Part shown: positions 1,016 through 25,092 of the stretch, one piece after another | How positions within the stretch are numbered: the stretch's first letter is position 1 | Layout of the letters: each line of letters starts with the position of its first letter | The notes under the pieces: generated by a model | The model's input: only the letters and a program-made list of their open reading frames with translations | What the model was told of the DNA's origin: nothing | The model's database searches: none | DNA from: Candidatus Latescibacterota bacterium | GTDB taxonomy: Bacteria > Latescibacterota > CBDEFO01 | Assembly (NCBI GenBank): GCA_965248755.1 | Contig: OZ252149.1 | Span: forward strand, 288,001-352,000 | Reading direction: 5' to 3' | DNA: 64,000 nt | Translations under genes and position numbers: made by a program

Positions 1016-1087
1016 CCTTAACGTCCAAGCTCACCTGCTTCTATGAAGAGTAGCGGATTAGCGCTCAGGTGCAGCGTCTTGTTAGGC
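1016..1087 (-). other. attC recombination site
   Basis: Minus strand GCCTAAC AAGACGCTGCACCTG...CAGGTGAGCTTGGAC GTTAAGG. R'' and R' cores plus paired L boxes with an extrahelical base; 72 bp; 2 bp after a TGA. Confidence 0.9.
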
Positions 1088-1364
1088 GCTCATACTGACT
1101 TGTCCAATAACAGTTTCTTAAACACAATATAATGAGTGACTAGAAGGGTAGGAACCCAAAATGATGGTATCCAGTATGAAGCACCCATATATGGCCCAAT
1201 GTTGTGTAGTGCTCCCATAAGAAATGGCGTATGTAAGGTCAATTGTGCCAACCACATTAAACACCCACATAGCTGTTATCTTAAACGGCTTATCTTGCCT
1301 AATTGCATATAAGGCAAACAGCGCCAGTAATGCTGTGTACTGCTTCCCAGGAAAGCGACACCAA

Positions 1365-2228
1365 TTAAGCAACCTGGGGTAGTAGATAAAATTGTTTTCT
1401 CCACTCTTTTGGGGTCTTATATCCCAGGGATGAATGAAGCCTGTTCTTGTTGTAATTATCGATCCACTGAGATATGATCTTCTCAGCCTGTTCAAAGGAT
1501 TCAAACTTGTGAAGCCAAACACACTCTTGCTTGAGGGTCCTGAAAAAACGCTCTACAACACCGTTCCAATCGGGTTTACCACTTGGTATGTATTCCTGAC
1601 GAATTCCCCAATATTCGGTACTGGCCAAATAGGCCCGAGCCAAAAAGATGGAACCATTGTCAGAGCGCAAAGTGAGACCCTGGGGGACAGCCTCCTTGGA
1701 AGTGTATCGAGAGATCACGGCCCGATCCAGGGCATCTGTGGCCTCCAGTGCCCTCCCTTTTCGACTAAAACGATACCCAGGAACCTCCCGGCTTCCGTTG
1801 TCCACCACCGCAATAAGAGGACACCAACCATCTTTTCCACAGTAAATCTTTGTCAAGTCACTCGACCACAAACTGTCGGGACTATCCACCACAGAACGCT
1901 TCTGGGCAACCTGTGGCCCCTTTCTCCCGGGACGATTCCACAGCTTACACTGCCACCCCTTAAGCTTCATTATCCTATGAACCTTCTTAACGTTGACACA
2001 TTCCCCTTCCTTGAAACGAAGATGCGCCCAAACCCGCCTGTGACCAAATGCCTCTTCTTGGTCCAGTATCCCTCGAATACGAAAAGCAAGCTCCTCATCT
2101 ATCACAGGCTCTTTAACAGAAGAACTGACACCTCTATCCCTAAACCTATACAGAGTCGAACGATGCAAACCCAAAGCCAAAGCTACCACCTTGCGGGAAT
2201 AGCCTCGACCCAAAAACCGCCCACTCAA
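1365..2228 (-). CDS. IS3-family transposase OrfB (rve DDE domain)
   Basis: WSSDLT, LRSDNGSIF, NGVVERFFRTLKQE, YN..RLHSSLGYKTP. Confidence 0.95.
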   Translation of the reverse strand: MSGRFLGRGYSRKVVALALGLHRSTLYRFRDRGVSSSVKEPVIDEELAFRIRGILDQEEAFGHRRVWAHLRFKEGECVNVKKVHRIMKLKGWQCKLWNRPGRKGPQVAQKRSVVDSPDSLWSSDLTKIYCGKDGWCPLIAVVDNGSREVPGYRFSRKGRALEATDALDRAVISRYTSKEAVPQGLTLRSDNGSIFLARAYLASTEYWGIRQEYIPSGKPDWNGVVERFFRTLKQECVWLHKFESFEQAEKIISQWIDNYNKNRLHSSLGYKTPKEWRKQFYLLPQVA

Positions 2229-2554
2229 GGCAACCGCTTCGTTTTTTTTAGACGGGCTACCTCTTCGAGTATCTCCAACTGGAGCGTCAACTGCCCTACC
2301 TTGCGCTCCAACCGGCTAACCTCTCGCTCCTTCGGATCCTTGCGACCACGCCGAGACTTCAGACTCTCCTGGCCCCCTTCTAAGAAACTATCACGCCAAG
2401 CATACGCCTGCGACTGGCTAATTCCATTCTTACGACACACCTCAGATAGATCTGCTCCTCTCAAAAGAGCCAACACAATCTCTCCCTTACGGGTCGCCGT
2501 CCAGCGCTTACCATCTTTCACTTCGGGGCTCGACACCTTGACCTCCCTTCTCAA
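2225..2554 (-). CDS. IS3-family transposase OrfA (HTH)
   Basis: RWTATRKGEIVL...EVCRKNGISQSQAYAWR...LERKVGQLTLQLEIL. An A8 run (2242-2249) precedes OrfB in the -1 frame. Confidence 0.9.
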   Translation of the reverse strand: MRREVKVSSPEVKDGKRWTATRKGEIVLALLRGADLSEVCRKNGISQSQAYAWRDSFLEGGQESLKSRRGRKDPKEREVSRLERKVGQLTLQLEILEEVARLKKTKRLP

Positions 2555-2877
2555 ACCCCAATTTGCGAAATATTTGTCGCTCTGTCAAGGGGAGCGGTAT
2601 GGCTGATATAAAGTCACCAATCCCAGAAGGGTACGCAAATTGTGGGGGCATGCCTTCATACACCGCACCAGATGTCATAAACATAAGACCAAGATGTCTC
2701 AGCGAATGCAATATCAATATTGGAACAAATATAGCTGCAGCAGATATTTCTTTTAACTTTGGCATCAAATATATCATTGCTGCCCAGTAAAATATGATCG
2801 TACTCAGTGCTAAATTAAATGGCAGGATTCTATCTAAAATAATCTGATCCAATATCATCTCCTTCGTTCTTGTTTGC

Positions 2878-2915
2878 GCCTAATTAGGACTTGTGCAGTT
2901 TTCTAGGCTAAGAAC
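2878..2915 (-). other. attI-like site downstream of intI 3' remnant (copy 1)
   Basis: Minus strand GTTCTTAG...ACTGCACAAGTCCTA-ATTAGGC, 19 bp before a cassette ATG with a GAAGGAG RBS. The motif layout is shared with 17009-17051. Confidence 0.55.
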
Positions 2916-3053
2916 CTATATACAGCTATGTGAGCTATATAAGACCCCACTGAAATATTAAGAAGAAACCTGCAATATTAAAAATATCATTCTGTTGAGT
3001 ATAATTAGCATAAGTCTTGTAGGAATTATATACAGACTGTATAAAACCCCAAT

Positions 3054-3146
3054 TCAACGGTTTAGAACGTGAGTATAAATCATTGTCGTTTTGACATCCT
3101 TATGGCCGAGTAATTCCTGAACTGTGCGAATATCATCACCATCTCC
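3054..3146 (-). pseudogene. intI: integron integrase C-terminal remnant
   Basis: Translates [30 protein letters not shown], the characteristic IntI C-terminus. Confidence 0.85.
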
Positions 3147-3187
3147 CAAGCCGCCTTGCGCGGCGCAGCGCTAACTTGACGTTACAC
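3147..3187 (-). other. partial attC (R'' half only) fused to the intI remnant
   Basis: Minus strand GTGTAAC GTCAAGTTAGCGCTGCGCCGCGCAAGGCGGC, downstream of the cyclase stop. No R' is present. Confidence 0.5.
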
Positions 3188-3240
3188 GCTGTCCTGAAGT
3201 TCATCGAATAGTCGAGTAATGAAAAACTATGGACGACATC

Positions 3241-4287
3241 TCAGGACCTCAGATTTACGCCATATATCTCTACCTTTTCCATCCTTCCGCGCAACTCCAC
3301 GGCTCCGAGAAGAACAAAATCAAGCTCTGCATCCTGCAGGAGTTGCTCTTTCACGTAAGTAGAGACCAAAAGGGATTCGTTGTATTTATTGCATTCTCCC
3401 TGAATTCTGGCAGCCGTATTCAAAACATCGCTCAGATAAGCGATATCTCTTTTTACATCTCCTACCTCCGCTACAGTAACTGGACCTGTATTTATGCCGG
3501 CCTTAAATTCGGGGATGATTCCGTAATTTTCATTGTAATAGGTTGATTTTGACTTCAATTCCCTCTGAAACTCAAAGAATACCATTATACAGTTTTTATT
3601 TCTAATGCCATCCTCAATTGTCCAAGTAAGTATCACTTCATCTCCGACATATTGGTATATCTCGACATCATGCTTTCGCACGGCGTTTGTGAGGTCACTG
3701 AAACAGTCCTGTATCAGTTTGGAAAACTGGATATGTCCAAGTCGTTCGGCATGAGTGGTTGACGATTTCAGATCCAAAAACATAAATATGCGCTTTTCTT
3801 CTCTTGGGAAGTGATATTTACCCATCATAAGATTTATCAGTACCCGTTTCCCCACCATGTTTCCCATCTGGTCAAAAAACGATACTACAGCAGTAGCTGT
3901 GACTAAGTAGGCTAAGGCTACAATGGCAGGTGGCTTAGCAACTCTTCTTGCAAACGAAGGCAACAATTCTGACCAAGAACTTTGGTCTTGAATTATTACC
4001 AGCATTCTTGAAGCGAAAACTAATATTACCATCGATAAGAAAACGATAATGGCTCTATACACAATTATGTAAACATATGATTTTCTGCGAACACTGGGTC
4101 TTTCAGATAGACCCAAGCTGAACCAGTATGATATACCCAGCAATACACTTGCAAATATCCACATCGAAACGAGGGCTTTATTCGTAGATGCCCAGTCAGG
4201 TCTGGATTCGGAACCCACAAATCGAACCAGTAAGTATAAAGCGCTGACTATACTCCAAACGATGATACTTGAGACAACACTTTTCAT
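3241..4287 (-). CDS. membrane-anchored class III adenylate/guanylate cyclase, integron cassette
   Basis: N-terminal TM helices; FMFLDLKSST, YQYVGDEV, FKAGINTG, DVLNTAARIQ, LRGR. Confidence 0.92.
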   Translation of the reverse strand: MKSVVSSIIVWSIVSALYLLVRFVGSESRPDWASTNKALVSMWIFASVLLGISYWFSLGLSERPSVRRKSYVYIIVYRAIIVFLSMVILVFASRMLVIIQDQSSWSELLPSFARRVAKPPAIVALAYLVTATAVVSFFDQMGNMVGKRVLINLMMGKYHFPREEKRIFMFLDLKSSTTHAERLGHIQFSKLIQDCFSDLTNAVRKHDVEIYQYVGDEVILTWTIEDGIRNKNCIMVFFEFQRELKSKSTYYNENYGIIPEFKAGINTGPVTVAEVGDVKRDIAYLSDVLNTAARIQGECNKYNESLLVSTYVKEQLLQDAELDFVLLGAVELRGRMEKVEIYGVNLRS

Positions 4288-4371
4288 GCGTGTGCTTCCT
4301 TTAAGCTTAGTTTATGTACTACCTGTTACACATCCGAAGTAAATAGGAAGAATGGTCGGTTAATTAATCGC

Positions 4372-4434
4372 CTCTAACGTTTCGAGCATTCGCGAACCGC
4401 GAAGCGGTCGGTCAGCTGCATCCCGCTGTTAGGC
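4372..4434 (-). other. attC recombination site
   Basis: Minus strand GCCTAAC AGCGGGATGCAGCTGACCGACCGCTTCGCGGT...AAAC GTTAGAG, 63 bp, 6 bp after a TAG. Confidence 0.8.
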
Positions 4435-4440
4435 CGTGAC

Positions 4441-4630
4441 CTACTTATACTCCGGTTTGTAGCGCGGCTCATAGAGCTCGGCTACGACTCCGCCTGGCAT
4501 CCGACATTGAGTGATGAGGCAGAAACCAGCATCCGTGATTTTGTCTGCGAACTCTACGCTTCGCCTACAAGTCAGCAACGGTTCGGGCCAGATCGTCGCC
4601 GTAGAAGGAGATGCCGTATGTTCCAGCGGA
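4441..4630 (-). pseudogene. VOC/glyoxalase-family cassette gene, 3' fragment
   Basis: YGISFYGDDLARTVADL* ... EFADKITDAGFCLITQCRMPGGVVAELYEPRYK, with a stop and a frameshift. Abuts attC. Confidence 0.6.
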
Positions 4631-4677
4631 AGAACCTATTTCCACGGTTTCAACACTTTTTGACACTATGATATCCA

Positions 4678-5706
4678 TTAAAAACCGGCCTTTAGATCAC
4701 ACACATTCAATAAAGGCTCACCGGCAAGATAGCGCCGGAGATTATCTTTGAATATCTGCCCACGACGCACCCAGAGCTGCGGAGAGTGTGCGGATACATG
4801 GGGAGTTAAGAGCACATTGGGCATATCCCACAAGGGACTATCAGAAGGCGGAGGCTCCTGGGCCAAAACGTCCAATCCAGCTCCTGCGACGTGTCCCGAT
4901 CGAAGGGCATCGATCAGAGCCTCTTCGTCTACGATCCCCCCTCTTGATATCACGATGATATGAGCGCCCGGCTTGATGCGCTCGATACACCGGCGGTCAA
5001 TCATATTACGGCTCTCAGCAGTATAGGGAGCAGTAACAACCAACCAGTCGGATAGCGACAGGAGGTCGTCCAAGCGTTCCATGCCCCAGACTTCGCGGAC
5101 ACCCGGCGGTGGCGATATTGGGTGAATATCGACAGCGTAAACGTCCATATCGAAGCCACGCGCTCGCTGAGCAATGGCCTTGCCCACATCGCCCAACGCA
5201 ACTACCCCCATAGTAGTACCTGCCAATTCTATCATCACATCCATGTAATTTTGTGTATCCCAACGATGAGCTTTTTGGTCGGCTATGAGTTCGGGAATGT
5301 GGTGCGCAAACGCCAGGATCATAGCAAAGGTATGATCCGCCATAGGGATGACGTGCGTGCCCACAGCGTTAGTAAAGACGATATCGCTTTCAACGATTTC
5401 CGGTACTTCTTTCAAAATCTTGTCAAAACCCATACCAATACAATGGAACCAGCGCAGGCAATTTGCTGCCTGGAAGGCTCCTTGGCTGATCAATCCAAAC
5501 TGGACTTCAGCGTCAACTACCTCTTTTACCTCATCCTCAAGGTTGTAGGCGGGTCGGAAATCGACATCCGGGAAAGTTTCCCGTAAATCTCGGACGAATT
5601 CCTCACCTAAATCAAAAGCCAATACGATCTTCATAAGCCAATCCTCATCACCAATACCGGGAGAATCCATTTCCATAATTTCAACACTTTCTGTGAATTC
5701 GATCAT
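4678..5706 (-). CDS. D-2-hydroxyacid dehydrogenase
   Basis: ALGDVGKAIA, ISRGGIVDE, AGAGLDV..QEP, NVLLTPHVS. The true start may be MKIVLA (~5634). Confidence 0.92.
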   Translation of the reverse strand: MIEFTESVEIMEMDSPGIGDEDWLMKIVLAFDLGEEFVRDLRETFPDVDFRPAYNLEDEVKEVVDAEVQFGLISQGAFQAANCLRWFHCIGMGFDKILKEVPEIVESDIVFTNAVGTHVIPMADHTFAMILAFAHHIPELIADQKAHRWDTQNYMDVMIELAGTTMGVVALGDVGKAIAQRARGFDMDVYAVDIHPISPPPGVREVWGMERLDDLLSLSDWLVVTAPYTAESRNMIDRRCIERIKPGAHIIVISRGGIVDEEALIDALRSGHVAGAGLDVLAQEPPPSDSPLWDMPNVLLTPHVSAHSPQLWVRRGQIFKDNLRRYLAGEPLLNVCDLKAGF

Positions 5707-5707
5707 A

Positions 5708-5865
5708 CCATTTAGAACCGCACTTTAGAGCACACACATTCAATGAAGCGTCGCTGGCAAGATACCGTTGGAGATTATCTTTCGATATCTTATTAGGACC
5801 TTCACAGTTTTGGGGCGACTCGACAGAAGCATCGGGAGATAACGACACACAAGGTATATTCATAG
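5708..5865 (-). pseudogene. decayed 3' end of a tandem D-2-hydroxyacid dehydrogenase paralog
   Basis: ISKDNLQRYLASDASLNVCALKCG matches IFKDNLRRYLAGEPLLNVCDLKAG of the adjacent gene. DNA 5712-5790 resembles 4678-4756. Confidence 0.7.
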
Positions 5866-6124
5866 AAAAGCGCGCCGTCCTGTTACGGCCACGAAGCCTC
5901 AAGCTAGTCCGCTATCACGGCGTCCTGGCTCCAAACGCCAGCATCCGGGACCAGCTCGCACCCGCCCAGACTGTATGAGATCAGCCAGCGCTGACACAGC
6001 AGAACGATGACCCCATCCGGGGACGACAACTGCATCGCCTCGTCTGACCCGCCTTACTGGCCAGTGTCTGCGCCATCTACGTCGCTGTCCGCCCAGCCCG
6101 TGCAGGCCGCCTCGAGATCCACTT

Positions 6125-6337
6125 TTGTGCGATGATCTCGACTTCGTCTTGATCTGTACGCCCCGCGGCGGGCAATTGGAGCCAGCACTCGCCGCCGATC
6201 CGCGTGCGATTATGCGTGACAACCATCGCCGTCAAATGGAGAGTATCATACACAGTGTTGAAACTGAGGCGCTACCCCTTTGCGATGAGCGTCAGCGGTT
6301 CAAGGCAGTCGAGATTGTCCTGTTGTGTATAAATTGA
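6125..6337 (+). pseudogene. internally deleted Gfo/Idh/MocA oxidoreductase remnant
   Basis: DLDFVLICTP (N-domain motif) joined to NHRRQMESIIHSVET..PLCDERQ.FKAVEIVL (C-terminal-like). Confidence 0.4.
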
Positions 6338-6372
6338 GTCAGGGTGTACGGATTGTCAACTTACCGCTCCAG

Positions 6373-7287
6373 TCACAGGCCAGGCACGTAACCTTGTCCC
6401 CATTGTTCTTGCCGCGGCTCACGGAAATCCCCGGACAGCGGCATGATCCCGTTCTGGCCCCCGTCGGAGATGAACGTCTGGCCAATGATATACCGCGCAT
6501 CCTCAGACGCCATAAAGACAGCCAACCGTCCAATGTCCCAGGGGTCTCCAATGATACCCGCGGGAATCGTGCGACCGGCAGCTTCCGGGTCCAAGTCCTT
6601 CAGTACTTTTAGATGGTTTTCCACGAGAATCCAACCCGGTGCAATCGCGTTAACGCGAATGCCCTTGGGCGCCAGTTCCAACGCCAGAACACGTGTGAAA
6701 GCAACGATTGCCGCTTTGGTTCCGGCGTAAACCGTATGCTCGGTCATTCCAGTGAACGCATGCACCGAACTCAGGTTGATCACCACACCGTGACCCTGTT
6801 CGATCATAGCAGGAACTGCCGACTGGGTCGCAAAGAACATAGCACGTATATTTACGTGGTAGAGCGTGTCGAATTGCTCGGGCGTCACCTGCAGGAATGG
6901 CTTGTTCATCGTGATGCCTGCGTTGTTCACAATGATATCGATCCCGCCTAGAAACTCCATCGCCGTTGAGACCAATCCCCGAACCTGATGGATGTCACAG
7001 AAATCCGCCTTGAATGCCTCTGCCTTTCCGCCGTCGCGCTTGATTTCATCTACTGCCGTACTGGCTCCTGTCTCGCTGTGAGCATAATGGAGAACGACGG
7101 CAGCTCCTTCCTTCGCAAACTCCAGCGCGACGCCCCTGCCAATTCCGGTGCCCGAACCCGTCACGAGCACACGTTTGCCTGCCATCTTTTTCGTCTGTGT
7201 GATCTTGCACCTCCTGTTGAAAATAGGATTGCCAACATCTATCCGACAATAATAGAACGCCTCAAACCAGATAGATTGGGATTCCAC
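6373..7287 (-). CDS. short-chain dehydrogenase/reductase (SDR)
   Basis: VTGSGTGIG, NNAG, YAGTK, RVNAIAPG. The start may be MAGKRV (~7185). Confidence 0.95.
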   Translation of the reverse strand: MESQSIWFEAFYYCRIDVGNPIFNRRCKITQTKKMAGKRVLVTGSGTGIGRGVALEFAKEGAAVVLHYAHSETGASTAVDEIKRDGGKAEAFKADFCDIHQVRGLVSTAMEFLGGIDIIVNNAGITMNKPFLQVTPEQFDTLYHVNIRAMFFATQSAVPAMIEQGHGVVINLSSVHAFTGMTEHTVYAGTKAAIVAFTRVLALELAPKGIRVNAIAPGWILVENHLKVLKDLDPEAAGRTIPAGIIGDPWDIGRLAVFMASEDARYIIGQTFISDGGQNGIMPLSGDFREPRQEQWGQGYVPGL

Positions 7288-7328
7288 CTTCTAACTGTCC
7301 AGAGAGCTCTAACTCCTGTCACTACAGC

Positions 7329-8552
7329 TTATCCTAAGTGGTATTTCGCAATGCCAAACAGCCTCGCCGCGTTGCCGCCGAGAATCAGGTCTTTTTCTTC
7401 CTGCGACAGGAAATCGCAGTGCAGGCGAATGAAATCCAATGCCTGGCGGTACGTGCACCACATGGCCATGCCGTACGGACTGTCCGTTCCCCAAAGCAGT
7501 TTGTGAGCGCCTACCTGATTGCGCAATTGCTCAAGTTGTTTCTGGCCAAGCGGATACGGATAGTCCGGTGACTTGGCGGGAAACAAAACCTCCGCATAGA
7601 TGTTTGGGCGATCCAGCAATGCAATCACTTCATCGGGGATGCCGATGTCATGAATAATCGCGGCCGGGACAAGTCCATGTGTGATGACCGACTGAATATC
7701 AGGATGTCTCCGGGCCCATTCATCAAACTCAGCCACTCGCCTCATGAACATATCGACGCGATCAATCGTCCGGTCGTCGAGGTACCAGAAAATCGGAATC
7801 TCGAGTTTCCGCACGAGGCCCCACAAGGGGTCGAATTTCGGGTCGTTGAGTATGAAATGCTGCTGCAACACTGAGAAAGGCTCGACGCTGAAGTACAAAC
7901 CTTTGCTGCCGTACTCAGAGATCGCCCGTTCTACGTCCCCCAGGCGCCTGGGGTTGTCGGCCTCCGGTTCCCAAATCTGCGCCAGCCCGATGAATCGGCC
8001 AGGGTGATCTTTCATCGCCTGGCCGAAGTATTCGTTTAAATCGCCGTAGACGTGATCGGGTTGGAGGACACCCGTATCGACCCCAGCCAGATTCATCTCG
8101 GCGACCATACGCTGCGGCGGGGCTTCATTGTTAGCGAGGCTGGGCGGGTAAAGCTGCATGACGTAATCCACCCCGGCAACTGTGATTTCTGCCTGTCCAT
8201 AGTCGGTCAGACGGAAATTAACTTTCGGCATATCGTCTATCTTGTAGGACTCAAACTGCAGAAACTTTTCGGTGACGCGCGTGCCGTCGTCCTTTCGCCA
8301 GAAGTTGTTAGATTCGCGCAAGTGAATCTGCCAGAATTTCAGGAACAGCTCTGGGTCGATCCCCTTGCGCTGCGAGCCAAGCCGGGGAAAGATGTGGTAG
8401 TGCGCGTCGATGATCTTGCTTCGCTTCTGGTTCTTCGAAGCACCCTCGATCACCCAGCCCCCGCCGGTGAATACCATCTTGCCCTCTTTTGTCATGCTAT
8501 CTCTCCGGGAACCTATCCGCATAACGCTTGGCTGGACCCTCCACACCTTCAA
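7329..8552 (-). CDS. amidohydrolase family (Amidohydro_2) protein
   Basis: IIDAHYH, ITHG, LLWGTDSP, LILGGNAARLF. Confidence 0.9.
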   Translation of the reverse strand: MKVWRVQPSVMRIGSRRDSMTKEGKMVFTGGGWVIEGASKNQKRSKIIDAHYHIFPRLGSQRKGIDPELFLKFWQIHLRESNNFWRKDDGTRVTEKFLQFESYKIDDMPKVNFRLTDYGQAEITVAGVDYVMQLYPPSLANNEAPPQRMVAEMNLAGVDTGVLQPDHVYGDLNEYFGQAMKDHPGRFIGLAQIWEPEADNPRRLGDVERAISEYGSKGLYFSVEPFSVLQQHFILNDPKFDPLWGLVRKLEIPIFWYLDDRTIDRVDMFMRRVAEFDEWARRHPDIQSVITHGLVPAAIIHDIGIPDEVIALLDRPNIYAEVLFPAKSPDYPYPLGQKQLEQLRNQVGAHKLLWGTDSPYGMAMWCTYRQALDFIRLHCDFLSQEEKDLILGGNAARLFGIAKYHLG

Positions 8553-8671
8553 CTATCAAAGCCTCCCGGAACTGCTTGACTTCCCCACCGAAAAGGCCCC
8601 CTATCTTTCCTGATACGTTTTGGGAGATCCTACAGACGACAATGTGTAGGGACATGGAGTGTTCTCTTGCT

Positions 8672-11197
8672 TCACCGCAACAACAATCTGAGAGGCGGCG
8701 CCCCTTCCTCCACTCTTTTGAAGAAAACGTCCTCGATGTAGCGCCTTAGCGAAGGATCGGTATCCAGAAGTGGTAGCCGTTCCCTGACCAGGGGGACGAC
8801 AGACGCGGCCTCGCTGCCCAGGGCCGAGAGGAACCTGACGGCAGCCCGCCACTCTGCGCCGCCTCTTGGACGGCTCTTCTCTCCCACAATCTCCGCCAGG
8901 GTCTTGAGCTCCGACTCGCCCCCACGAATGCAGTAGAGGGCGTAGCAGGCGTCAGCCAGGTACCTGTTTTCCGGCGTGAGATACTCCTCCAGAATCGGGA
9001 CGGCCTCAGAGGCCGCCGGCCCGATCGCCGCCAGCGTCCGGGCGGTGAGCCAGTCTCCTCCGCCTTTGGATTCCTCGTACATCTTCACGAGGACGGGAAC
9101 GGCGCTCGCAGCCCCCGGACCTATCCCCGATAGCACCCGTAAACCGAACTCCTTGTGGGTTCCCAGCAGAGCCATCGCGTCAGGCAGCGCGGGTGCACCA
9201 GCCTCACCGGAGAGGAACAGCCCGAGTGCGGCCATCTGCACGACCGAGCGGTACCCGTCTCGCAGCGCCTGCCGAAGCGGTGCGACAACAGTGCGAGCAT
9301 ACAACGACAGCTCATCCGGTAGGTAGCCCTTTACATCTTCATCCCAGCTCGGAGGACGCGTCATGCCGGTGAGGGCAAACGTTGCACCCAGACGCACGTA
9401 GGCATCGGCATGCGACAAAAGCGACGACACTCTCGGCGCCGCTGAGTACGCATCCGGGCCGATACCCTCAAGCGCTCGCAGAGCGGGGATGCGAACCTCC
9501 GGGTCATCAAGCGCAGCGACAAGCGCATCTACTGCAGGGGCTGCCTCCACCCCCATCTCAAAGAGCGCCCACGCAGCGCTTCGACGCTCGGAGGCATGGG
9601 CCCCCCCCAACCCCGCAATGCACTCTTTTACGGACCTGTCGCGGAAAGAAGCGGACTCGTCCTTGAGGTTTGTAACCGGCCACGGCTCAACGCGGCCGGT
9701 CGGCGCGCCCAGCTTCTCAATATAGTCGGACGCCGTTGCGCGGATCTCGTCGTATTCATCGAAGGTCAACGGTTTTCCCGACTCGGCCAGGTGGGGTACG
9801 AACGGGGCCAGGCGGGCCCGCAGGGCCTCGAGCCATGCGGCCGCCTCCACGGCTAGGGGGTCACCCTCGTTCGCCGCCGCGCAGTCCTCGACCATCTGGA
9901 GATAGCGATAGTCGTCAACGCCCTCGCGACGCGCTTCCCAGCCGGTGAGGGGCATCGGCTCGTCACTGCCGGGCAACCACCAGACATGGCCGTGGCGGGT
10001 TCCGTCGGTGTAGGCCCATACGACATTCCCCCCAAGCCGGTGCGCCCAGGTGTAAAGTCCCGCATAGTAACGCTGCCGAACCGGCTTGTAGTCTCCTCTC
10101 AGTATGCGATAGGAATAGGTCCAGACCTGCGCTCCGCGGCGCGCCGCCTCGGCCCGCATCTCGGGCGTGATATGTCCGTCATGAACGATCCACACATCGT
10201 GGACGTCACCGTGCGCGTACGTCGCCGTGCCAGACATGCCTGTCCCCAACCGCATGGACACGTCGCGCATAGGAAGATAATCTTCCCTCAACCCAGGCGC
10301 GGGATAGGGCGGCTCATCCCAGCCGTATACGATGAGTTCCGGCCATCCCTGCTCCAGTCGTTGCGCCTCCAGCCACGCCACCGCCGCTCTTCTCTGTCCT
10401 TCCTCAATTTCCGGGATGTTGCCCTGTAGAATGAGACACGGCACATCCGGATGGATGAGTCCCGCCTCCTTCGCCAGCCCCAGGGACTTCGGCAGGCTGC
10501 TCTTGGGTGGCGACTCGCTGAAGTCTCCCGCCCCGTAGAACGTGACCGAGTTCTGCCCGTGCACCGCCATGTCCCGATAGTCGGGCAGGGAACCCCCGCG
10601 ATAGAACATGCCGAACGCAGCGCGCGGCGTCTGCAGCACTATGGGTCGCACCCGTACGTTAAGGTCAACAACCGTCACCGGCCTGCCCGCGGGTTTGATG
10701 CGGATCTTGCCCGCGTGCGGACCCTCGGATGTCTCGCGATCCGCACGAAACGTCAGCCAGAAATTGACGCTCGTGCCCCTGGGAAGGTCGGCTACGACAT
10801 CACCCCGCTGCAGAAAGACTTCTCCGGGTATCGTGCTCAGCCACGGCATGTTCGTTTCAGCTAGTTTCTGTTTGACGCCAGGGTCGATGCGATGATAAAC
10901 TGTTACCTCGAGGTCCGATTCCACCTCGATCCGGACGTCCTTGACGCCGTCTGAGATCGCGTGTACGCCGAACTGAATAGACTCGTACTCATCCCTGGCT
11001 AAGGCGCATGAAACCTTCTTCACAACGTCGTCCGGCGTGGGCACATGCGAAGGCGGCAGGTTCTTCAGCGTGCTGTAATTAAAGACAACGTAACCCTTGT
11101 CTCGATCCAGTTTCATCCACTCCATGGGCCCACAGGCATTGAGAGCCGTTAATCCAACGGCCAGCAATGTATAGGCAACTATGCTCCGTTTTTTCAT
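8672..11197 (-). CDS. putative lipoprotein: DUF4091/GH123-like TIM-barrel glycoside hydrolase fused to HEAT repeats
   Basis: Signal ending LNAC; ARDEYESIQF, YGWDEP, WEARREGVDDYRYL. C-terminal repeats AAPAVDALVAALDD / IGPGAASAVPVL / IGPAASEAVPIL. Confidence 0.7.
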   Translation of the reverse strand: MKKRSIVAYTLLAVGLTALNACGPMEWMKLDRDKGYVVFNYSTLKNLPPSHVPTPDDVVKKVSCALARDEYESIQFGVHAISDGVKDVRIEVESDLEVTVYHRIDPGVKQKLAETNMPWLSTIPGEVFLQRGDVVADLPRGTSVNFWLTFRADRETSEGPHAGKIRIKPAGRPVTVVDLNVRVRPIVLQTPRAAFGMFYRGGSLPDYRDMAVHGQNSVTFYGAGDFSESPPKSSLPKSLGLAKEAGLIHPDVPCLILQGNIPEIEEGQRRAAVAWLEAQRLEQGWPELIVYGWDEPPYPAPGLREDYLPMRDVSMRLGTGMSGTATYAHGDVHDVWIVHDGHITPEMRAEAARRGAQVWTYSYRILRGDYKPVRQRYYAGLYTWAHRLGGNVVWAYTDGTRHGHVWWLPGSDEPMPLTGWEARREGVDDYRYLQMVEDCAAANEGDPLAVEAAAWLEALRARLAPFVPHLAESGKPLTFDEYDEIRATASDYIEKLGAPTGRVEPWPVTNLKDESASFRDRSVKECIAGLGGAHASERRSAAWALFEMGVEAAPAVDALVAALDDPEVRIPALRALEGIGPDAYSAAPRVSSLLSHADAYVRLGATFALTGMTRPPSWDEDVKGYLPDELSLYARTVVAPLRQALRDGYRSVVQMAALGLFLSGEAGAPALPDAMALLGTHKEFGLRVLSGIGPGAASAVPVLVKMYEESKGGGDWLTARTLAAIGPAASEAVPILEEYLTPENRYLADACYALYCIRGGESELKTLAEIVGEKSRPRGGAEWRAAVRFLSALGSEAASVVPLVRERLPLLDTDPSLRRYIEDVFFKRVEEGAPPLRLLLR

Positions 11198-11533
11198 GTT
11201 CCATCTCCCTCCAGCGAGTTAAGATCTGATCTGTTCAAACACTGCGGTCAGAGAATTGGCTTTTCTACATGAGGTTCCTTTATTGCAACATCCACCTGTG
11301 GATTCGTCTTGGTAGCAGGAACATGGGCTCACCTCCAAAATAAGTACTATGAGTTAGCTGCCGGTCGCAGGTGGTAGAGCCGTGCTTGAAAGTCACGGAT
11401 GAGCTTGACGTCGAACTCCCGTCGTCCGACGGCCAGGCGGGCAACTACTTGGTTAGTAAAGAGGTAAATTACCTGCAGCTTCGCTGATCCGGGAACGGTC
11501 AATTTGGCCTCGACGCTACTCGTCACCGTCCAA

Positions 11534-13258
11534 CTATCTGTTCTTCAAGGCCACCGGCTGACGTTCGAGCTGCGACAGGGCAACCGTCGTTTTCAACGTC
11601 TCGTACTGATCGCTGTACCGCTTGTAGATTCGCAGCGTTACCTGCTCCGGCACCGGCGCTTTGATCGCCCAGTGATAATACCCGTCCGGGTCAGTGTGGC
11701 AATGCCAGCGATTCAACACAACGCAGACACCACCGATTGGTTTGCCGCGCTCATCGACGACCTGTCCGCGCACAAGTCGGCCCTGCTTGAGGGTAAAGTC
11801 CTGCGGCTCGGCCTGCGGCCTGACTCTAACGTGTCGATGCTGAGGCGCGTAGCCCTCCACCTCCACCGTTAAAACACACTCACCCAATTCAACATCGGTG
11901 AATCGGAACCGCCCGTCCCCCTCCGACTTGGCGGTTGGATATCCATTGACGCTCTGTATCGATCGATACGAAAGGTGAGGATTGTCAATGAGCCTAGGCG
12001 CAGCCTTCCAGAGATCCAGCTCGGTCTCTTTGTCCTCTGCCCAGTCGTCAGCTACGTAACGATTCGGACCTCGCTCCACTGTAGCACCAGCAATCGGCGC
12101 GCCCCCTTCATCAACGACCTGGCCGGCCAATGTGATCCTCGTCGGTGAGATCCTCACCCGTTCAACGGTCACCGGGAACACCTGCGCTCCCCCTTCGGTC
12201 CCACCGATCGCCAGCAGCTTATTCGGGCCAACCTTGATGCCGTCCACCTGACCGGTGACAACCGGTTCGGGCGCATGCGAAAAGCTGATGCGATCGCGCC
12301 AGGTGCGTCCGTAGTCCGTGCTGAACGCTACGTGGAAACCCGGCCGGCCATATACACACGCCAGAACGCCGTTATCCAGCATCTGAACGGTTGGCCAGAT
12401 CGTCATCAGATGCGGATTGGTTGGCCGCGGCTTCGTCCACGTCTTTCCCAGATCATCCGACCAACTGACGGACATAGGCCGATACTCGCTCGGGAGGTGC
12501 GAGTATTGCGTCCGCATGACGCAGATCATCTGCCCATTGGACATCAATTCGATGCTCGACTCACACGGGCCGTTGTACTGGCCCGGCCACTCGGGGTTCG
12601 GATCAACGCGTCCGTCGGCCACAGTCGCGTAATAACGCCACGTGTGGCCGCGATCACTCGAGACGGATAGAACGACGCGACTGCGGGTGTCCCCCTTAAA
12701 CAGTCCGTACATCGGCGCTAACAGATCCCCGTTGGGAAGCTGTAGAATCTTGCCCTTATCGAAGATCGGCCAGGTGGAAACTCCGAGATGCGCCTGTTTG
12801 GTCGTCACCGCGTCGGGCATGTAGACCTGGACCGCTTTGGCTTCGAATTGTGTAAAGTCGTCGTTGAACCAGGCAAAAGTAGAATGGAGCGTAAACCAGC
12901 CATCCTTGTACTCGCCCTCCATAGGCGATTTGTGGAACTCGGCCTCGCCCTTAAACGAGGAATCACTGGTGAGGAATCTGAGTACGCCGCCGTCGCGTAG
13001 CGCCACGCTACTGGCGCCGCCGGCGAGTTGATGTGGCGATTCCATTTCCTCTCCCCACGTTTCACCGCCATCGGTCGACGTTCTGTAGAACCTCGGCCCC
13101 GTTTCCGGCTTTGGATAGAACGCTGCCGCTACGCCTCTCCGTGACACCGACATGCTGGCGCTATTCAAATAGGTCAGATCGCTTAATTGGGTCGGCTTAC
13201 CGACTGTGACATTCAGGATCTCAACCTCCTCCACAGCGGATTTCGCGTTCTTGATCAT
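11534..13258 (-). CDS. BNR/Asp-box sialidase-like propeller + carboxypeptidase-regulatory-like domains (paralog A, no signal peptide)
   Basis: Asp-boxes STDGGETW, SSDRGHTW, SDDLGKTW, STDYGRTW. C-terminal GQVVDEGGAPIAGATV and GQVVDERGKPIGG repeats. Confidence 0.8.
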   Translation of the reverse strand: MIKNAKSAVEEVEILNVTVGKPTQLSDLTYLNSASMSVSRRGVAAAFYPKPETGPRFYRTSTDGGETWGEEMESPHQLAGGASSVALRDGGVLRFLTSDSSFKGEAEFHKSPMEGEYKDGWFTLHSTFAWFNDDFTQFEAKAVQVYMPDAVTTKQAHLGVSTWPIFDKGKILQLPNGDLLAPMYGLFKGDTRSRVVLSVSSDRGHTWRYYATVADGRVDPNPEWPGQYNGPCESSIELMSNGQMICVMRTQYSHLPSEYRPMSVSWSDDLGKTWTKPRPTNPHLMTIWPTVQMLDNGVLACVYGRPGFHVAFSTDYGRTWRDRISFSHAPEPVVTGQVDGIKVGPNKLLAIGGTEGGAQVFPVTVERVRISPTRITLAGQVVDEGGAPIAGATVERGPNRYVADDWAEDKETELDLWKAAPRLIDNPHLSYRSIQSVNGYPTAKSEGDGRFRFTDVELGECVLTVEVEGYAPQHRHVRVRPQAEPQDFTLKQGRLVRGQVVDERGKPIGGVCVVLNRWHCHTDPDGYYHWAIKAPVPEQVTLRIYKRYSDQYETLKTTVALSQLERQPVALKNR

Positions 13259-13284
13259 TCTTCCATTTCCTCGTCTTTATGGAA

Positions 13285-13345
13285 TCTCATCGGCAAAGCT
13301 CAGCGGCGCAGCTTCTTCGCGTCCCCTGGAGCGTCTGTTTAAGTG
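13285..13345 (-). other. degenerate attC site
   Basis: Minus strand CACTTAAAC AGACGCTCCAGGGGACGCG-AAGAAGCT-GCGCCGCTGAGCTTTGCC GATGAGA. GCTC(C)AG/CTGAGC pair with an extrahelical C; both cores are mutated; directly after the stop at 13347. Confidence 0.6.
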
Positions 13346-13346
13346 T

Positions 13347-14216
13347 TTATGTGCCTGACTCACCGCGCCTGAGGAATCGCAATCCCACCTCTGCTGCCAG
13401 ATCATGAAGACGTGAGAAGTTCAGCACGTAGTCGCTTTCTTCGGACATGTGCTCGCAGAAACAAGGCGTGTCCGACGGTAGCTGGCTGAGGTGCTTGAGA
13501 TAGGTGGCATAGTCCATCACGCCGTCCCCAATGTGGACTTCATCCCACTTCAGGAACATATGGCGATGGTCGCAGCGGATGTCCTTCAGGTGGACGCTGG
13601 CCACAGTGTTGGCGAGGAGGTCGAACGTTCGGTCGATGAGCTCGGTCGTCTTGTAGAAGTACTTCTGGCTCACTAGGTTCATCTGGTCCAAGTGCAGGCC
13701 GAAGGCGGGATGGTCAACGCTATCGATGAAGGAGCGGATGTCTTCCGGCTGGTAGAAGAACGTGTTGTGCCACGGCTCGATGACGTACCTGGTGGCCTGC
13801 AAGTCCAGCCCGTCCAGGATGCGGAGCACGATGTCCCGGAACTCCCGCCTGCAGTCGTCCGTGTACATGTACGGGTGTGGAGCCAGTACTGCATCCGAGG
13901 GATCCTTGGTGCCCACCAGCGTGACCACGCACCCACATCGCATCACCTCCGCTTTGCGCAGCAGGGTACGCACAGTCTCGATCCGTTCGCGGCGCGCTTC
14001 CGCGTCATCGGTCATCAGGTTCTGCAACATATCTGCCTCACCCACCACCATTCCGAGGTCACGCGCCTTCGAGCCGAACCTGGCGCAGGCCTCATCGGTC
14101 ATTCCGGCCAGATTCTCCGGCGCTGGGATTGCTGACAAACCGTGCGCGTCCAGCTTCTCACAGAGCCCATAAAGTTCATCCACTGCCTGTGCCGAAAAGT
14201 AGCCTCCCAGTCTCAT
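13347..14216 (-). CDS. sugar phosphate isomerase/epimerase (xylose isomerase-like TIM barrel)
   Basis: IEPW, LHLDQMN, VHLKD, IGDGVMDY, CEH. Confidence 0.88.
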   Translation of the reverse strand: MRLGGYFSAQAVDELYGLCEKLDAHGLSAIPAPENLAGMTDEACARFGSKARDLGMVVGEADMLQNLMTDDAEARRERIETVRTLLRKAEVMRCGCVVTLVGTKDPSDAVLAPHPYMYTDDCRREFRDIVLRILDGLDLQATRYVIEPWHNTFFYQPEDIRSFIDSVDHPAFGLHLDQMNLVSQKYFYKTTELIDRTFDLLANTVASVHLKDIRCDHRHMFLKWDEVHIGDGVMDYATYLKHLSQLPSDTPCFCEHMSEESDYVLNFSRLHDLAAEVGLRFLRRGESGT

Positions 14217-15295
14217 GGTTCTCCTCCTTTGCTCCTACAAGCGCCGACAACGTCGCCCGGCAGGTCCAGATCAACCACCCGCCTCTCCAGCAGACTCATC
14301 ACCAGGGCCTCGATAGTGAATATGTTGAGCACAGACTGATCCAGGGGCAGCACCGGTTCCGCCTCGCAGCGGATCACTGCGGCGAAGTTCTCTAACTGAT
14401 GCTGATAGGCATTGGCCTGCTTGACGAAATGTTCCGCGTGACGGTAGTCGGCCCAGCCCAAGCTGCGCTGGTCCACGATCTTAATCTCGCCCGGAATAGT
14501 CCAACTGATCGGGAGTACGAGCCGGCCGTGCGTGCAGACGATCTCCAGTCGCTGGCTGTGGTCTGCTTTCTTGCTGCTCTCCACCACACCGACGCACCCG
14601 TTCCCATATTCCACGAACCCGTGCATACGGTTGATCGTGTCGTAGTGAGGGCTCACGTCCCCCAGGCAGTAGACGCGAGTCGGAATATCACCGGCGAAAC
14701 GGCCACAGGCGTTCACGCAGTAGCACGCGAAGTCGTAGGGGACTCCTCCCCCGCACTCTTTCCGTTGCCGCCAGTTGCGTGTCGTGTCGTCAGCCGGCGC
14801 CGTTTCGGAATCCAAGTCGCTGAAGTCGGCCCGGACACTGTCGACAGCCCCGAGTTCGCCGGACGCAACGAGCCTCTCCATGGCAACTACGGCGGGATGG
14901 TGAAGATACATGAAGCCTTCCGTGACGAAGGCATTGTGTTCGCGTACCAGGTCGCGAATCTCGATTGCCTCGCGGCCCGTGAGTGTGAGAGCTTTTTCGC
15001 AAAGGATACTCCGAACCCCACACCGCAGGCAACTCTCGATCTGTTCCCGGTGCTGATTGGGCCAGGTCGCCAACAGGATGCCGTCCAGATCTTCCCTCTG
15101 GATCATCTCGACATAGTCGGTGTAATAGCCGTCGCAACCGTACTGCTTGGCCCAGGCTTCCGCGGTTTCCTGTCGGATATCACAACAGCTGACTATCCGG
15201 ATTTGATCCGGGATGGCGCTTGCCGCACGAGCGTGCACGTGCGAAATGACGCCGCAACCGACGATTCCCAACCTGAGTGGAACGCTGCTGCTCAT
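14213..15295 (-). CDS. Gfo/Idh/MocA family oxidoreductase
   Basis: LGIVGCGVIS, ILCEKAL, GGGVPYD. Confidence 0.93.
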   Translation of the reverse strand: MSSSVPLRLGIVGCGVISHVHARAASAIPDQIRIVSCCDIRQETAEAWAKQYGCDGYYTDYVEMIQREDLDGILLATWPNQHREQIESCLRCGVRSILCEKALTLTGREAIEIRDLVREHNAFVTEGFMYLHHPAVVAMERLVASGELGAVDSVRADFSDLDSETAPADDTTRNWRQRKECGGGVPYDFACYCVNACGRFAGDIPTRVYCLGDVSPHYDTINRMHGFVEYGNGCVGVVESSKKADHSQRLEIVCTHGRLVLPISWTIPGEIKIVDQRSLGWADYRHAEHFVKQANAYQHQLENFAAVIRCEAEPVLPLDQSVLNIFTIEALVMSLLERRVVDLDLPGDVVGACRSKGGEP

Positions 15296-15425
15296 TTCCT
15301 CATCCTCTGTGCACCCAATGATAGGTTGAGTCGCTGCGGGACTCCCGCCTCAGTATGAGATTTCTGCACGAAGGTAAGGAGCATCATCGCCTTGCCGCCT
15401 CGCAACCAGCGCGTATGCATCAAAC

Positions 15426-16940
15426 CTATCGCACCGAGATCTCTACCCACGTGATCTGGATATCGTGCTTGGCGCTCACCTCGATCAGATTGTAGCCGTC
15501 GCTCAGGGCCTCCGGGGATACGTCATAGACTTGTCGGCGCGGCTCAGGCTCTTTCCAACCTGACGCTTTAACGTGTTCGGCTTCGACAAGTCCCGACCAT
15601 GGACAGGGCATGCCGTTCAGACACACCTCCAGCGGCTCAAGCAGAGGCTGATCTAGGTCCGGCACGACGAGTTCGACCCGGGCGCTCTGCTCCGGCAGCG
15701 GCTTCGGGCCGATGTGAAGACGGAAGACACCGTGCGTACCGGTGTAAGGCAGCGACCTGTCTTCGCCCGGCTCACCCTCCGCCCAGGGACTCGTGATGGT
15801 GATCGCATGCCGTCGCAGCCCGCCGCGAAGCGCGGCATAGGACCCGGCGTCCCTTAGTAGCCGGTCATGGTCCACGCGCGGCCAGCGCTGAAACGGTCCC
15901 GTAAAGAGATTGAAGAAGTATACCGCGTCGGCCCCGCGGTCCAGCCCGCTCACTATCACCCCGCGCATCTCCTCGTGCATCACGGTGCGATTTGCAGTCC
16001 CCGGATGCATCCCGCTCTCTAAACCTACTGCGACAGGCACATTCGTGCCGATGAGCAACCCTTTCCACGTCTCGATCGGCACGTCACTGTCAATAGAGGG
16101 CCAGAAGGGCGAGGCGATAATCAGGTCAACCAGTCCCGCCTTGGCCCACGAGATCGCATCTAGTCCGTGCCTGCGGGCGATCCATGGAGTTGTCGGTACG
16201 CGCACGGAGAGTTCGACAGGATGCCCCAATCGCTTCGCGGCTTCTTCTGTCGCCTGCCGCGCCTGCTCCACAAAAGCCGTCATCAGCTTCGCGCCTACGT
16301 GCTCACGTCCGGAGCGAAAGTACAGCCAGAAGCGCAGAAAATCCAGTTCCAGACCGTCCAGGTCGTAGCGAGAGCACACCTCCCTGACGAGCTTCATGTA
16401 GTGCTCACGCACCTCGGGCTGTTCGTAGTCCAGGCCATATGCAAGGCGCCATTCCGGATGCGACTTCCAGATTGTGCTGTGGGCCGGGTGGTCCGGCAGG
16501 TGGGGATTGTGGTCGTCGTTCATCCGCAGCGAGATCCACGCCTTTACTTGGTTTCGCCTCGCACGATCGATCATCCGCTTCGGGTAGTCGCATCCCTGCT
16601 CGTGAAGCGCCAGCACGTTCTTGAACAACTGTGTCTCGAACCTCCGATTCGGATCGATCCCTGAGAAAAACGGCTGGTCGTCACCGGCGCTCGGGTCGTA
16701 TCCGTCCCAATCTGATTCCCACACATCGCTCCGGTAGTTAGTGCGCTTTGCGTTCACGTTGACAAAGAGGTCCGTGACTCCAAGAGCGGCGTGAGTGTCC
16801 ACGAACTTATCGATCGTCTCAGGGACAATGGGGCCAAACGTCCCCACGAAGAACTCACTGCAGTCCAGGTTGTAGATCACCCTCCCACGCGCAGCATTGA
16901 CATCATTCATCCTGGCTTCTCCTCTCGTATCAATCGACAC
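15426..16940 (-). CDS. putative glycoside hydrolase (GHL10/DUF187-like TIM barrel)
   Basis: VIYNLD, AWISLRMNDDH, HPEW, LDY..PEVR, RYDLDGLELDFLR, GADAVYFFN. Confidence 0.7.
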   Translation of the reverse strand: MSIDTRGEARMNDVNAARGRVIYNLDCSEFFVGTFGPIVPETIDKFVDTHAALGVTDLFVNVNAKRTNYRSDVWESDWDGYDPSAGDDQPFFSGIDPNRRFETQLFKNVLALHEQGCDYPKRMIDRARRNQVKAWISLRMNDDHNPHLPDHPAHSTIWKSHPEWRLAYGLDYEQPEVREHYMKLVREVCSRYDLDGLELDFLRFWLYFRSGREHVGAKLMTAFVEQARQATEEAAKRLGHPVELSVRVPTTPWIARRHGLDAISWAKAGLVDLIIASPFWPSIDSDVPIETWKGLLIGTNVPVAVGLESGMHPGTANRTVMHEEMRGVIVSGLDRGADAVYFFNLFTGPFQRWPRVDHDRLLRDAGSYAALRGGLRRHAITITSPWAEGEPGEDRSLPYTGTHGVFRLHIGPKPLPEQSARVELVVPDLDQPLLEPLEVCLNGMPCPWSGLVEAEHVKASGWKEPEPRRQVYDVSPEALSDGYNLIEVSAKHDIQITWVEISVR

Positions 16941-17008
16941 ATGACCAGCTGTTTCTCCTGTGCCGATTCATCACTCCTGTGTTAACGTGAAACGTCACTT
17001 TCTCCGAA

Positions 17009-17051
17009 GCCCAACTACGATTATACAGTCCCCTTAAACTTGCCTAAGAAC
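17009..17051 (-). other. attI-like site downstream of intI 3' remnant (copy 2)
   Basis: Minus strand GTTCTTAG...ACTGTATAATCGTA-GTTGGGC (perfect GTTRRRY), ~180 bp after the intI remnant stop and upstream of 15426..16940. Confidence 0.55.
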
Positions 17052-17194
17052 TAGACTCTTTTCTTCTTATAAACCAGACACCTCGCGAGCCTCTGGTCGT
17101 TCGGGAGTCTAAATACTTATATTTTCATATCCTATCCTCTTGGCCATCTCGGTGCGCCTGGTTTATAGAGTCTTTATAAGCCGATCCATATCCC

Positions 17195-17289
17195 TTAAAT
17201 AGGGCTGCGCACACCGTGGCCGCTTCTATTGCGCGATGGGTGTAAATCCTGGTCGTGCTGACATACTCGTGGCCCAGCAACTCATCTTG
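17195..17289 (-). pseudogene. intI: integron integrase C-terminal remnant (copy 2)
   Basis: ELLGHEYVSTTRIYTH /frameshift/ RNRSGHGVRSPI*, matching IntI '[25 protein letters not shown]'. Confidence 0.8.
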
Positions 17290-17323
17290 TCAAAGTCCGA
17301 ACTCAGACGATAGAAATCGTCAC

Positions 17324-17512
17324 CGTACCCTCCAAAATAATATCCGAGCATCGAGAAGTCAACCTAAGAATCCACAACACCAGTGCTGTTTAGTCTTCTC
17401 AAAGGCATCCGTCGAGTAGAAGCACAGCAACACAACAAGATGCAGCAGGACTCGCTCACCCCTAGACTGAAAACTGGATGACCTTGGTAACCCCAATTCC
17501 CATTGACATCCA
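17324..17512. repeat. dispersed non-coding repeat/divergent promoter module, homologous to 39790-40151
   Basis: TAATATCCGA.GCATC.AGAAGTCAA...GTCGAGTAG...CAAGAT is shared with 39790-39914, followed by CAATTCCCATTGACATCCAC. Confidence 0.65.
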
Positions 17513-20798: not shown

Positions 20799-20968
20799 CG
20801 TATAACTCCTCGTTGTTAAAAACACAACATAACGCGTTTGCCAAAATACTTCCGCAGGCAAATCGGGGAACTAGGCTGATAACACTCACAAGTAGAATAC
20901 ATTCCATAGTTATAACTCCTTCTACTCTGGTCCATTAGAAGAGTGCCATCCTAAGCCAGTCTTTGCAG

Positions 20969-22789: not shown

Positions 22790-22957
22790 CGTATAACTCC
22801 TCGTTGTTAAAGACCCAACATTACGCGTTTTCCAGAATGCCTCCCCAGACAAATGGGACAATTAGACTGATAACACTCACAACTGCGATCCGTTTCAACG
22901 TTTAACTCCTTCGAGGCTGGCCCGTTAGAAGAGTTCCACCCCAAGCCAGCCTTTAAC

Positions 22958-24780: not shown

Positions 24781-24840
24781 CGTTTGACTCCTTCTAATCT
24801 GGTCTGTTAGAATAAATCCATCCCAGCCCGGCCTGTGCAC

Positions 24841-25053
24841 TTACTTGCCTGAGCGGTCAAGGGTTTCCAACATACCTTCGGTGCACTCGCAAGCTCCTGT
24901 GACACGTCCGCCGATCCCATAGTCGTCGCACAGCCGGAAGGGCTCTTCGACAAGCGGTCGTATCTCCTCGGCCAGCGCTGGATCGATTGCGGAGTCCTTA
25001 TTGAGTCTCCAAAATCGGCTCGATGGCTGCCCGATAGGCGCAGACCGAGTCAT
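24841..25053 (-). pseudogene. 3' fragment of a DUF4838 paralog
   Basis: WRLNKDSAIDPALAEEIRPLVEEPFRLCDDYGIGG is nearly identical to the C-terminus of copy 3. Confidence 0.8.
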
Positions 25054-25092
25054 CTTCCAGCCTGGCTCTTGACGCTACTCGTCACCGTTCAA

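Follow-up and report, generated by a model that had tools for sequence, protein, structure and literature searches.

Multicopy integrase-and-attI remnants in a Candidatus Latescibacterota genome and the possible spread of reverse integrons by their own integrase

RESULTS

Two integrase tails followed by attI regions

The DNA studied here is a 64,000-nucleotide window from Candidatus Latescibacterota bacterium (GCA_965248755.1, contig OZ252149.1; G000:C1:288001-352000), part of a single 4.54-Mb contig of the source genome, G000. It contains two units in which the 3' end of an integron integrase gene (intI) is followed by a region resembling the integron recombination site attI: copy 1, near 2878-3146, and copy 2, near 17009-17299 (Table 1; coordinates without a prefix are window positions). 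Both were compared with the related genome G001 and with loci of relatives (L-numbers) and full-length IntI proteins (P0003-P0011). An Rfam scan of the window gave no match.

An earlier note, made from the letters of the window, had placed IntI C termini in both copies on the strand of the cargo genes, each followed by a palindrome and then by a core motif. Both tails are real, and both units do lie on that strand. The best NCBIfam model for the copy 1 tail is TIGR02249 (54 bits, versus 41 for XerC and 39 for XerD), and its residues are 94% identical to full-length IntI P0009. The copy 2 tail is spread over two frames (ELLGHEYVSTTRIYTH and NRSGHGVRSPI-stop). Alone, it is a weak IntI match (E value of 0.07); over 83 nt, however, its DNA is 77% identical to that of a second remnant, which itself matches TIGR02249 at an E value of 8e-10. 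An IntI-type tail like that at the end of copy 2 occurs in 53 of 83 IntI rows and in neither XerC nor XerD of G000. The palindrome and the core motif are present behind each tail, with the motif of copy 1 at 2878-2899. At its crossover, copy 1 reads ATT in G000, and its orthologue in G001 reads GTT.

Copy 1 lies in a cassette array. In order, the array consists of a degenerate attC cassette site, a cyclase gene, an attC-like half site, the intI stub with attI, a gene broken by an insertion sequence (IS), a complete attC, and more genes. A co-oriented attC cassette thus follows the attI region, and copy 1 forms the end of the cyclase gene, with one attC before and one after, which is the layout of delta-attI-type cassettes. 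Three further layouts of this type occur in a G000 array at 20-22 kb. The earlier note had called a half attC directly before copy 1. An attC-like site does lie there and is present in G001 too, but it fails our attC profile in both orientations (-13.1 as a left half, -8.5 as an inverted right half). The start of this half site looks like an attC bottom strand, and the G that follows its AAC is found in 0 of 125 profile-found attC top strands. The profile took the place of two simpler heuristics that had missed known sites. It gave no match at a score of 22 or higher in 1.5 Mb of shuffled DNA; its later use at 16-20 was without separate calibration, its training set is the same loci, and its right spacer is 6 nt only.

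The placement of both units inside an array, as first proposed, does not extend to copy 2. The stretch from 4434 to 17013, which includes 12.6 kb of sugar-pathway-like genes downstream of copy 2, yielded no attC; a different dispersed repeat precedes the unit, and the delta-attI-type layout is absent. The glycoside hydrolase gene that copy 2 had been thought to feed is a resident gene and not a cassette: an 83% paralogue elsewhere lacks attI and attC, and homology begins about 20 nt before the ATG. In G001, 208 bp of copy 2, the intI stub included, are gone and the crossover G is mutated, and contigs of two runs have the same deletion as G001. The G001 deletion directly demonstrates decay in place, as had been suggested for these units; capture of the hydrolase is not supported.

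Table 1 Features of copy 1, copy 2, and their surroundings
Feature	Position	Strand	Remarks
Complete attC closing the first cassette behind copy 1	1016..1087	-	About 535 bp from attI in G001, where the IS is absent
IS3-type IS (rve and HTH domains)	1335..2602	-	Missing in G001; skipped by contigs of four runs
First gene after copy 1 attI	2508..2858	-	Broken by the IS
attI core, copy 1	2878..2915	-	Predicted crossover 2884/2883; G to A in G000, intact in G001
Middle inverted/direct-repeat box, copy 1 attI region	2917..2942	-	
Distal palindromic box, copy 1 attI region	3029..3044	-	Kept in intact reverse integrons
IntI tail, copy 1	3057..3146	-	Last 30 codons; alpha family; true stop deleted with about 50 nt; new TGA at 3054-3056
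attC-like half site	3150..3187	-	Inverse core and GC-rich hairpin, fused to intI stub; orientation ambiguous
Adenylate/guanylate-cyclase gene (PF00211)	3241..4287	-	Cassette-like; upstream of copy 1
Degenerate attC upstream of cyclase gene	4372..4434	-	Left half scores 22.9; no full-site call
GHL10-like glycoside hydrolase (PF02638)	15426..16940	-	Resident paralogous family; without attC
attI core, copy 2	17009..17029	-	Predicted crossover 17015/17014 (GTT), then attC-like RRRY; G to A in G001
Distal palindromic box, copy 2	17162..17179	-	
IntI tail, copy 2	17195..17299	-	Frameshifted; beta family; own stop at 17195-17197; deleted in G001
Dispersed repeat	17317..17447	-	Unrelated; not attC; directly upstream of copy 2

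Two families of attI-bearing remnants with a fixed right end

The 3' regions of copies 1 and 2 are 49.7% alike, with a score of -21 versus -36.7 ± 5.7 for shuffles (maximum, -18). Since this likeness is barely above that of shuffles, the copies belong to two families, alpha (copy 1) and beta (copy 2). Likeness within the families is 90% between copy 1 and one further alpha copy and 62 to 69% between copy 2 and beta copies. The remnants of G000 comprise 13 alpha copies and about 7 beta copies. G001 has 17 alpha matches, and alpha also occurs in three genomes of another family; scans with alpha DNA patterns gave no match in metagenome contigs or viral contigs.

The core pattern of the earlier note has five matches in the 4.54 Mb, every one on an alpha or beta copy. 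The note had put the core about 170 to 180 bp past the stop; the spacing from the true stop to GTT is 188-189 nt in alpha copies and 185 nt in copy 2. The TGA at 3054 in copy 1 is not the original stop: compared with other copies, copy 1 has lost about 50 nt, and this deletion gave rise to the TGA. The element GTTCTTAG, proposed as common to both units, is ruled out as a shared attI box: it has 92 occurrences in the genome, its offset differs between copies 1 and 2, and other beta copies lack it.

The right end of the alpha copies is fixed. Across 11 copies (excluding two whose right ends are missing or degenerate), identity is 92.7% in the 60 nt before the crossover, 51.4% in the next 4 nt, and 27.7% beyond. 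The point of divergence is the same in contigs of two other runs. This drop is the behavior of an attI, a conserved site that ends at G/TTRRRY and whose flanks change there. Most alpha copies have co-oriented cassettes behind them: a co-oriented attC or half attC lies within 4 kb for 11 of the 12 copies that reach the core, and beta copies are mostly without one. Wherever mapped, stacked copies are co-oriented, including four alpha copies in 7 kb of G000 and six pieces in 9 kb of G001. A left-half attC is found no more than 450 bp upstream of 8 of 47 copies, versus about 1.4 expected at the genome rate. An identical junction of half attC and alpha recurs in G001 with different genes downstream.

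Several other places in G000 contain related sequence. A short attI-like piece at G000:C1:2968330-2968405, possibly of a third type, is related to sequence that precedes the 381-kb alpha copy. At G000:C1:3679521, an alpha copy begins at the stop codon of the upstream housekeeping gene, presumably proS, with about 9 nt in common with the intI end; judging from the bases at this junction, it is likely a microhomology deletion. A 170-bp dispersed repeat at G000:C1:2460452-2460641 and about 15 other places has a promoter-like TTGACA/TATCTT end and is sometimes fused to alpha attI. At L007:3914-4780 (G000:C1:2107913-2108780), the interval between nuoK and nuoL is occupied by a piece of beta attI, an ankyrin gene, and a half attC, where G001 has a different small gene pair. 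Because the two genomes differ in this interval, this position in the complex I operon seems to be a variable site for cassettes.

Intact relatives are reverse integrons with a conserved attI architecture

Neither G000 nor G001 has a match for an intact IntI above the family cutoff. The closest full-length IntI proteins, one of them named Candidatus Latescibacterota integron integrase at its source, are 78 to 82% identical to the longest IntI remnant of G000, and close full-length relatives score 478 bits against TIGR02249 (cutoff, 265). We compiled 186 distinct IntI loci among the matches listed in protein scans, with identities to P0009 of 76% at most, and called a locus reverse when a co-oriented attC lay downstream of intI. 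Among the 37 listed loci at least 65% identical to P0009, 15 are reverse and none is canonical; one has a distant upstream attC only, and no attC was found in the other 21. The 149 listed loci below 65% include 39 canonical and 9 reverse loci.

A quick tree of 86 rows, with Shimodaira-Hasegawa-like approximate likelihood ratio (SH-aLRT) support, no bootstrap, and loci without attC or motif as well as Treponema left out, is consistent with this division. One branch (SH-aLRT, 98) unites 38 rows, including P0006, P0009, P0011, and the longest alpha remnant (remnant A, which fills 29% of the tree columns), and has no canonical member. Remnant A groups with IntI, far from XerC and XerD.

An attI motif derived from the regions downstream of intI in the relatives matches 35 loci, 34 of them at 161-188 nt past the stop and none canonical. 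In an alignment, the attI regions of intact relatives, alpha copies, and beta copies share three boxes: the distal palindrome, then a middle box, and last the core, with GTT at its end. In close relatives, attI and array thus lie downstream of intI in the same orientation, as in a reverse integron, and not upstream without a conserved downstream motif, the arrangement named in the earlier note as speaking against its reading. A hidden Markov model (HMM) built without G000 sequence gave 13 weak matches in G000 (best E value, 6e-4), 12 of which fall on alpha or beta copies, with copy 2 missed. The same HMM gave four matches on reversed G000 (best E value, 0.53).

The multicopy state extends beyond G000. 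With a sequence-only model, 17 of 151 genomes of the phylum match, and nine have 4 to 15 copies (best 18 candidates per genome). At least two copies were found in 8 of 10 genomes of other groups, each picked as a donor of training sequence. By protein scan, 8 of 168 genomes of the phylum have a strong IntI match (best, 69%). We classified 48 copies in 40 regions picked from the lists of the sequence-only model: 1 has a full intI, 1 lacks only the N terminus, 1 has both ends, 2 have only the 5' part, 17 have only the 3' end, and 26 have none. A full attC lies downstream in the same orientation in 18 and in the opposite orientation in none. Units of promoter and attI without intI are found repeatedly, both at separate G170 loci and among the alpha copies, so the moving unit need not include intI.

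At one relative's locus (L302, near 1567; G008:C349), the end of an intact 55-nt attC falls exactly in the distal palindrome of an attI region. This position suggests that the palindrome may be a second crossover site. The possibility that left ends cluster at the distal palindrome was rejected; most junctions there do not fall at G/TT.

Platforms nested inside arrays

A second attI was found in the same locus in 3 of 34 loci. Locus L199 has three co-oriented platforms in one array, only 69 to 72% alike. The first consists of a promoter, the start of intI, and its end, joined by an internal deletion. The second is a left-half attC fused to the 3' third of intI and attI, the very layout that had been claimed for copy 1. 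The third has an intact intI (472 bits); about 220 bp and the promoter separate it from a near-complete attC upstream, which measures 100 nt and whose right spacer is long. In L094, a promoter fused to attI (87% alike) is followed by four attC cassettes, a PemK-type gene, an intact intI, and attI. The reading frame directly before this nested intI (L094:5203-5856) is a single one of 217 amino acids with a PemK toxin domain at its C terminus; its N terminus looks antitoxin-like by eye and has no Pfam match. Of the reverse loci, 3 of 20 have a co-oriented attC upstream (L094 and L117, plus L199, where it was identified by hand), versus 0 of 25 canonical loci.

Other genes in the window

An aminoglycoside 3-N-acetyltransferase-like gene (PF02522) at 17645-18580 scores far below the NCBIfam resistance cutoffs. 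In the stretches 8672-13258 and 18954-33161, large proteins (BNR-repeat, HEAT-repeat, and others) are encoded by many paralogous genes in tandem, with 67 to 77% DNA likeness where compared; the proteins are probably carbohydrate-active. Judged by their translations, the genes at 46904-51531 and 57921-60784 include an SbcC/SbcD-like pair as well as nested transposase genes that have a copy of one and the same gene on either side.

DISCUSSION

Origin of the two units

Both units are what decay has left of the 3' ends of two distinct reverse-integron platforms, and we consider it somewhat more probable than not that such attI-bearing pieces were spread over the chromosome and into cassette arrays by IntI itself and then eroded from the left. 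IntI would recombine attI, the distal palindrome, or the first attC with any upstream site at hand. Excised circles would differ in their left part, namely, a complete intI and its promoter, a stub of the 3' end, or a promoter with attI alone, and would reinsert at attC, attI, or secondary sites in the chromosome. Each new attI would capture its own cassettes while integrase is present, and deletions would then erode the platforms from the left. Spread by IntI is suggested because divergent platforms stack in one orientation, half attC sites are enriched upstream, one attC junction is exact, and related activities of IntI1 have been published. Since G000 has no intact IntI, its copies would at present be inactive, barring the arrival of an integrase from elsewhere.

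Several observations weigh against this explanation. The left ends of the alpha copies are ragged, with breakpoints 45 to 317 nt from the crossover and one beyond 460 nt, and at several of the left junctions there is an IS end or another repeat. An intact attC lies directly upstream of 0 of 47 copies and no more than 800 bp upstream of 1 of the 48 surveyed. An intact attC directly before a platform with a fixed left end, as expected of a whole platform moving as a cassette, was therefore not seen, and L199 alone comes near to it. Intact units of intI and attI do occur inside co-oriented arrays (L199 and L094), in line with the proposal that they insert like a cassette, but neither an attC before the unit as a rule nor a fixed left end is supported. 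No N-terminal IntI remnant was found in G000, and the idea that the window copies once carried a whole intI is not supported. The excess of nesting in reverse over canonical loci has a one-sided P value of 0.08 among kin that are not independent, and it is weakened by L117, where intI is frameshifted and the attC is 2 kb away. No joint of attI and attC left by excision was found among the contigs listed over the window, no circle junction was seen, and the nuoK-nuoL site has no empty allele, as G001 has other genes there.

The strongest alternative, which we regard as unlikely, is that whole reverse integrons arrived or were duplicated repeatedly by other routes, such as IS-flanked transfer or illegitimate recombination between attC hairpins and intI giving tandem duplication. 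The fixed right end would then reflect later cassette capture, and the ragged left ends would be deletions. The IS ends or dispersed repeats at left junctions, copy 2 included, fit this account, as do the nested deletions between G000 and G001, and the 5' intI remnants in 3 of the 48 surveyed copies and in L199 indicate that whole genes were once there. A tandem duplication that begins within intI and extends halfway through the first attC would also yield a half attC, stub, and attI. However, recent duplication leaves unexplained why platforms 69 to 72% alike are stacked co-oriented in L199. The attC joined exactly at the distal palindrome in L302 likewise speaks for IntI, and we found no mobile element common to the flanks of the copies.

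It is improbable that the remnants were kept and spread mainly as promoter or regulatory DNA of the next gene, a domesticated integron promoter (Pc) region that has lost its role in recombination. What survives is the 3' 45 to 190 nt, the crossover G is mutated in copy 1 of G000 and in copy 2 of G001, and promoter-like hexamers fused to attI recur, all of which such a role would accommodate. Yet promoter consensus scans of the copies do not rise above shuffles (1 versus 1.3 for copy 1, 1 versus 1.0 for copy 2, and 3 versus 1.7 for a full alpha copy), and it would be left unexplained why different cassettes share one starting base. A derivation from XerC/XerD or phage integrase tails with chance motifs, for which the poor score of copy 2 alone and its absence from the matches of the independent HMM could be cited, is rejected as extremely improbable on the best model, the tree position of remnant A, the IntI-type tail, and the 12 of 13 HMM matches on alpha and beta copies.

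Spread by IntI leads to a broader and more tentative claim: the reverse integrons of this clade may be self-propagating, their integrase excising its own gene and attI as a cassette that docks in other arrays or chromosomes without a transposon or plasmid, leaving at least 12 daughter capture points per genome. If true, self-propagation would be a route for "sedentary" integrons between phyla and for the origin of integrase-less arrays. PMC3607928 and PMC4889954 describe the gain and loss of integrons without a mobile carrier and the origin of such arrays as open. The window copies alone are dead remnants and contribute little to this picture; their identity is ordinary, and it is the behavior of the population that is unusual. 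The conserved attI architecture provides a search handle for attI, and L199, L094, and the alpha family offer exact candidate substrates for recombination.

Comparison with known systems

Reverse integrons and delta-attI cassettes are already known; for genomes with multiple platforms and for nested intact intI, we found no matching report. A literature search, with most subscription papers outside it, returned no report on multicopy attI in reverse integrons (10 to 15 platforms per genome) or on intI as a cassette. The intact relatives resemble the Treponema-type reverse integrons (PMC3607928, PMC4889954), in which intI points toward attI, cassettes are codirectional, and the attI core lies about 200 bp past the gene. 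The latter source describes inverted-integrase integrons as a paraphyletic group. Unlike the Treponema integrons, which have one attI each and whose mechanism of gain and loss is given as unknown (PMC3607928), the present clade spans several phyla, has a defined three-box attI architecture of 160 to 190 nt, and reaches 15 attI copies per genome.

The remnants also resemble the delta-attI-type and attI1-ORF-attI1 (ORF, open reading frame) cassettes of class 1 and 2 integrons, in which a truncated or whole attI replaces attC at the end of a gene in an array; IntI1 is reported to excise and insert such attI-terminated cassettes (PMC12901181). The delta-attI fragments are mostly 14 to 18 nt, with one of 244 nt, and lack intI coding sequence, although Table S1 of that paper may hold longer cases. 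The present pieces extend from 45 to more than 460 nt; many include the 3' end of intI, and the whole gene is found in relatives. Activity between two attI sites has been described (PMC7790495), and the marine attI sites of PMC3146285 are canonical only.

Finally, short integrase-less arrays scattered in a chromosome recall clusters of attC sites and single attC sites lacking integron integrases (CALINs and SALINs; PMC4889954) and insertions at genomic attG sites, where IntI1 is reported to insert cassettes (10.1101/2022.09.11.507474). According to PMC4889954, standard tools cannot find attI outside classes 1 to 3; attI could not be searched in CALINs, and 95% of these lack a recognizable intI pseudogene. 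In contrast to CALINs, the scattered arrays described here begin with a recognizable attI, often preceded by an intI stub.

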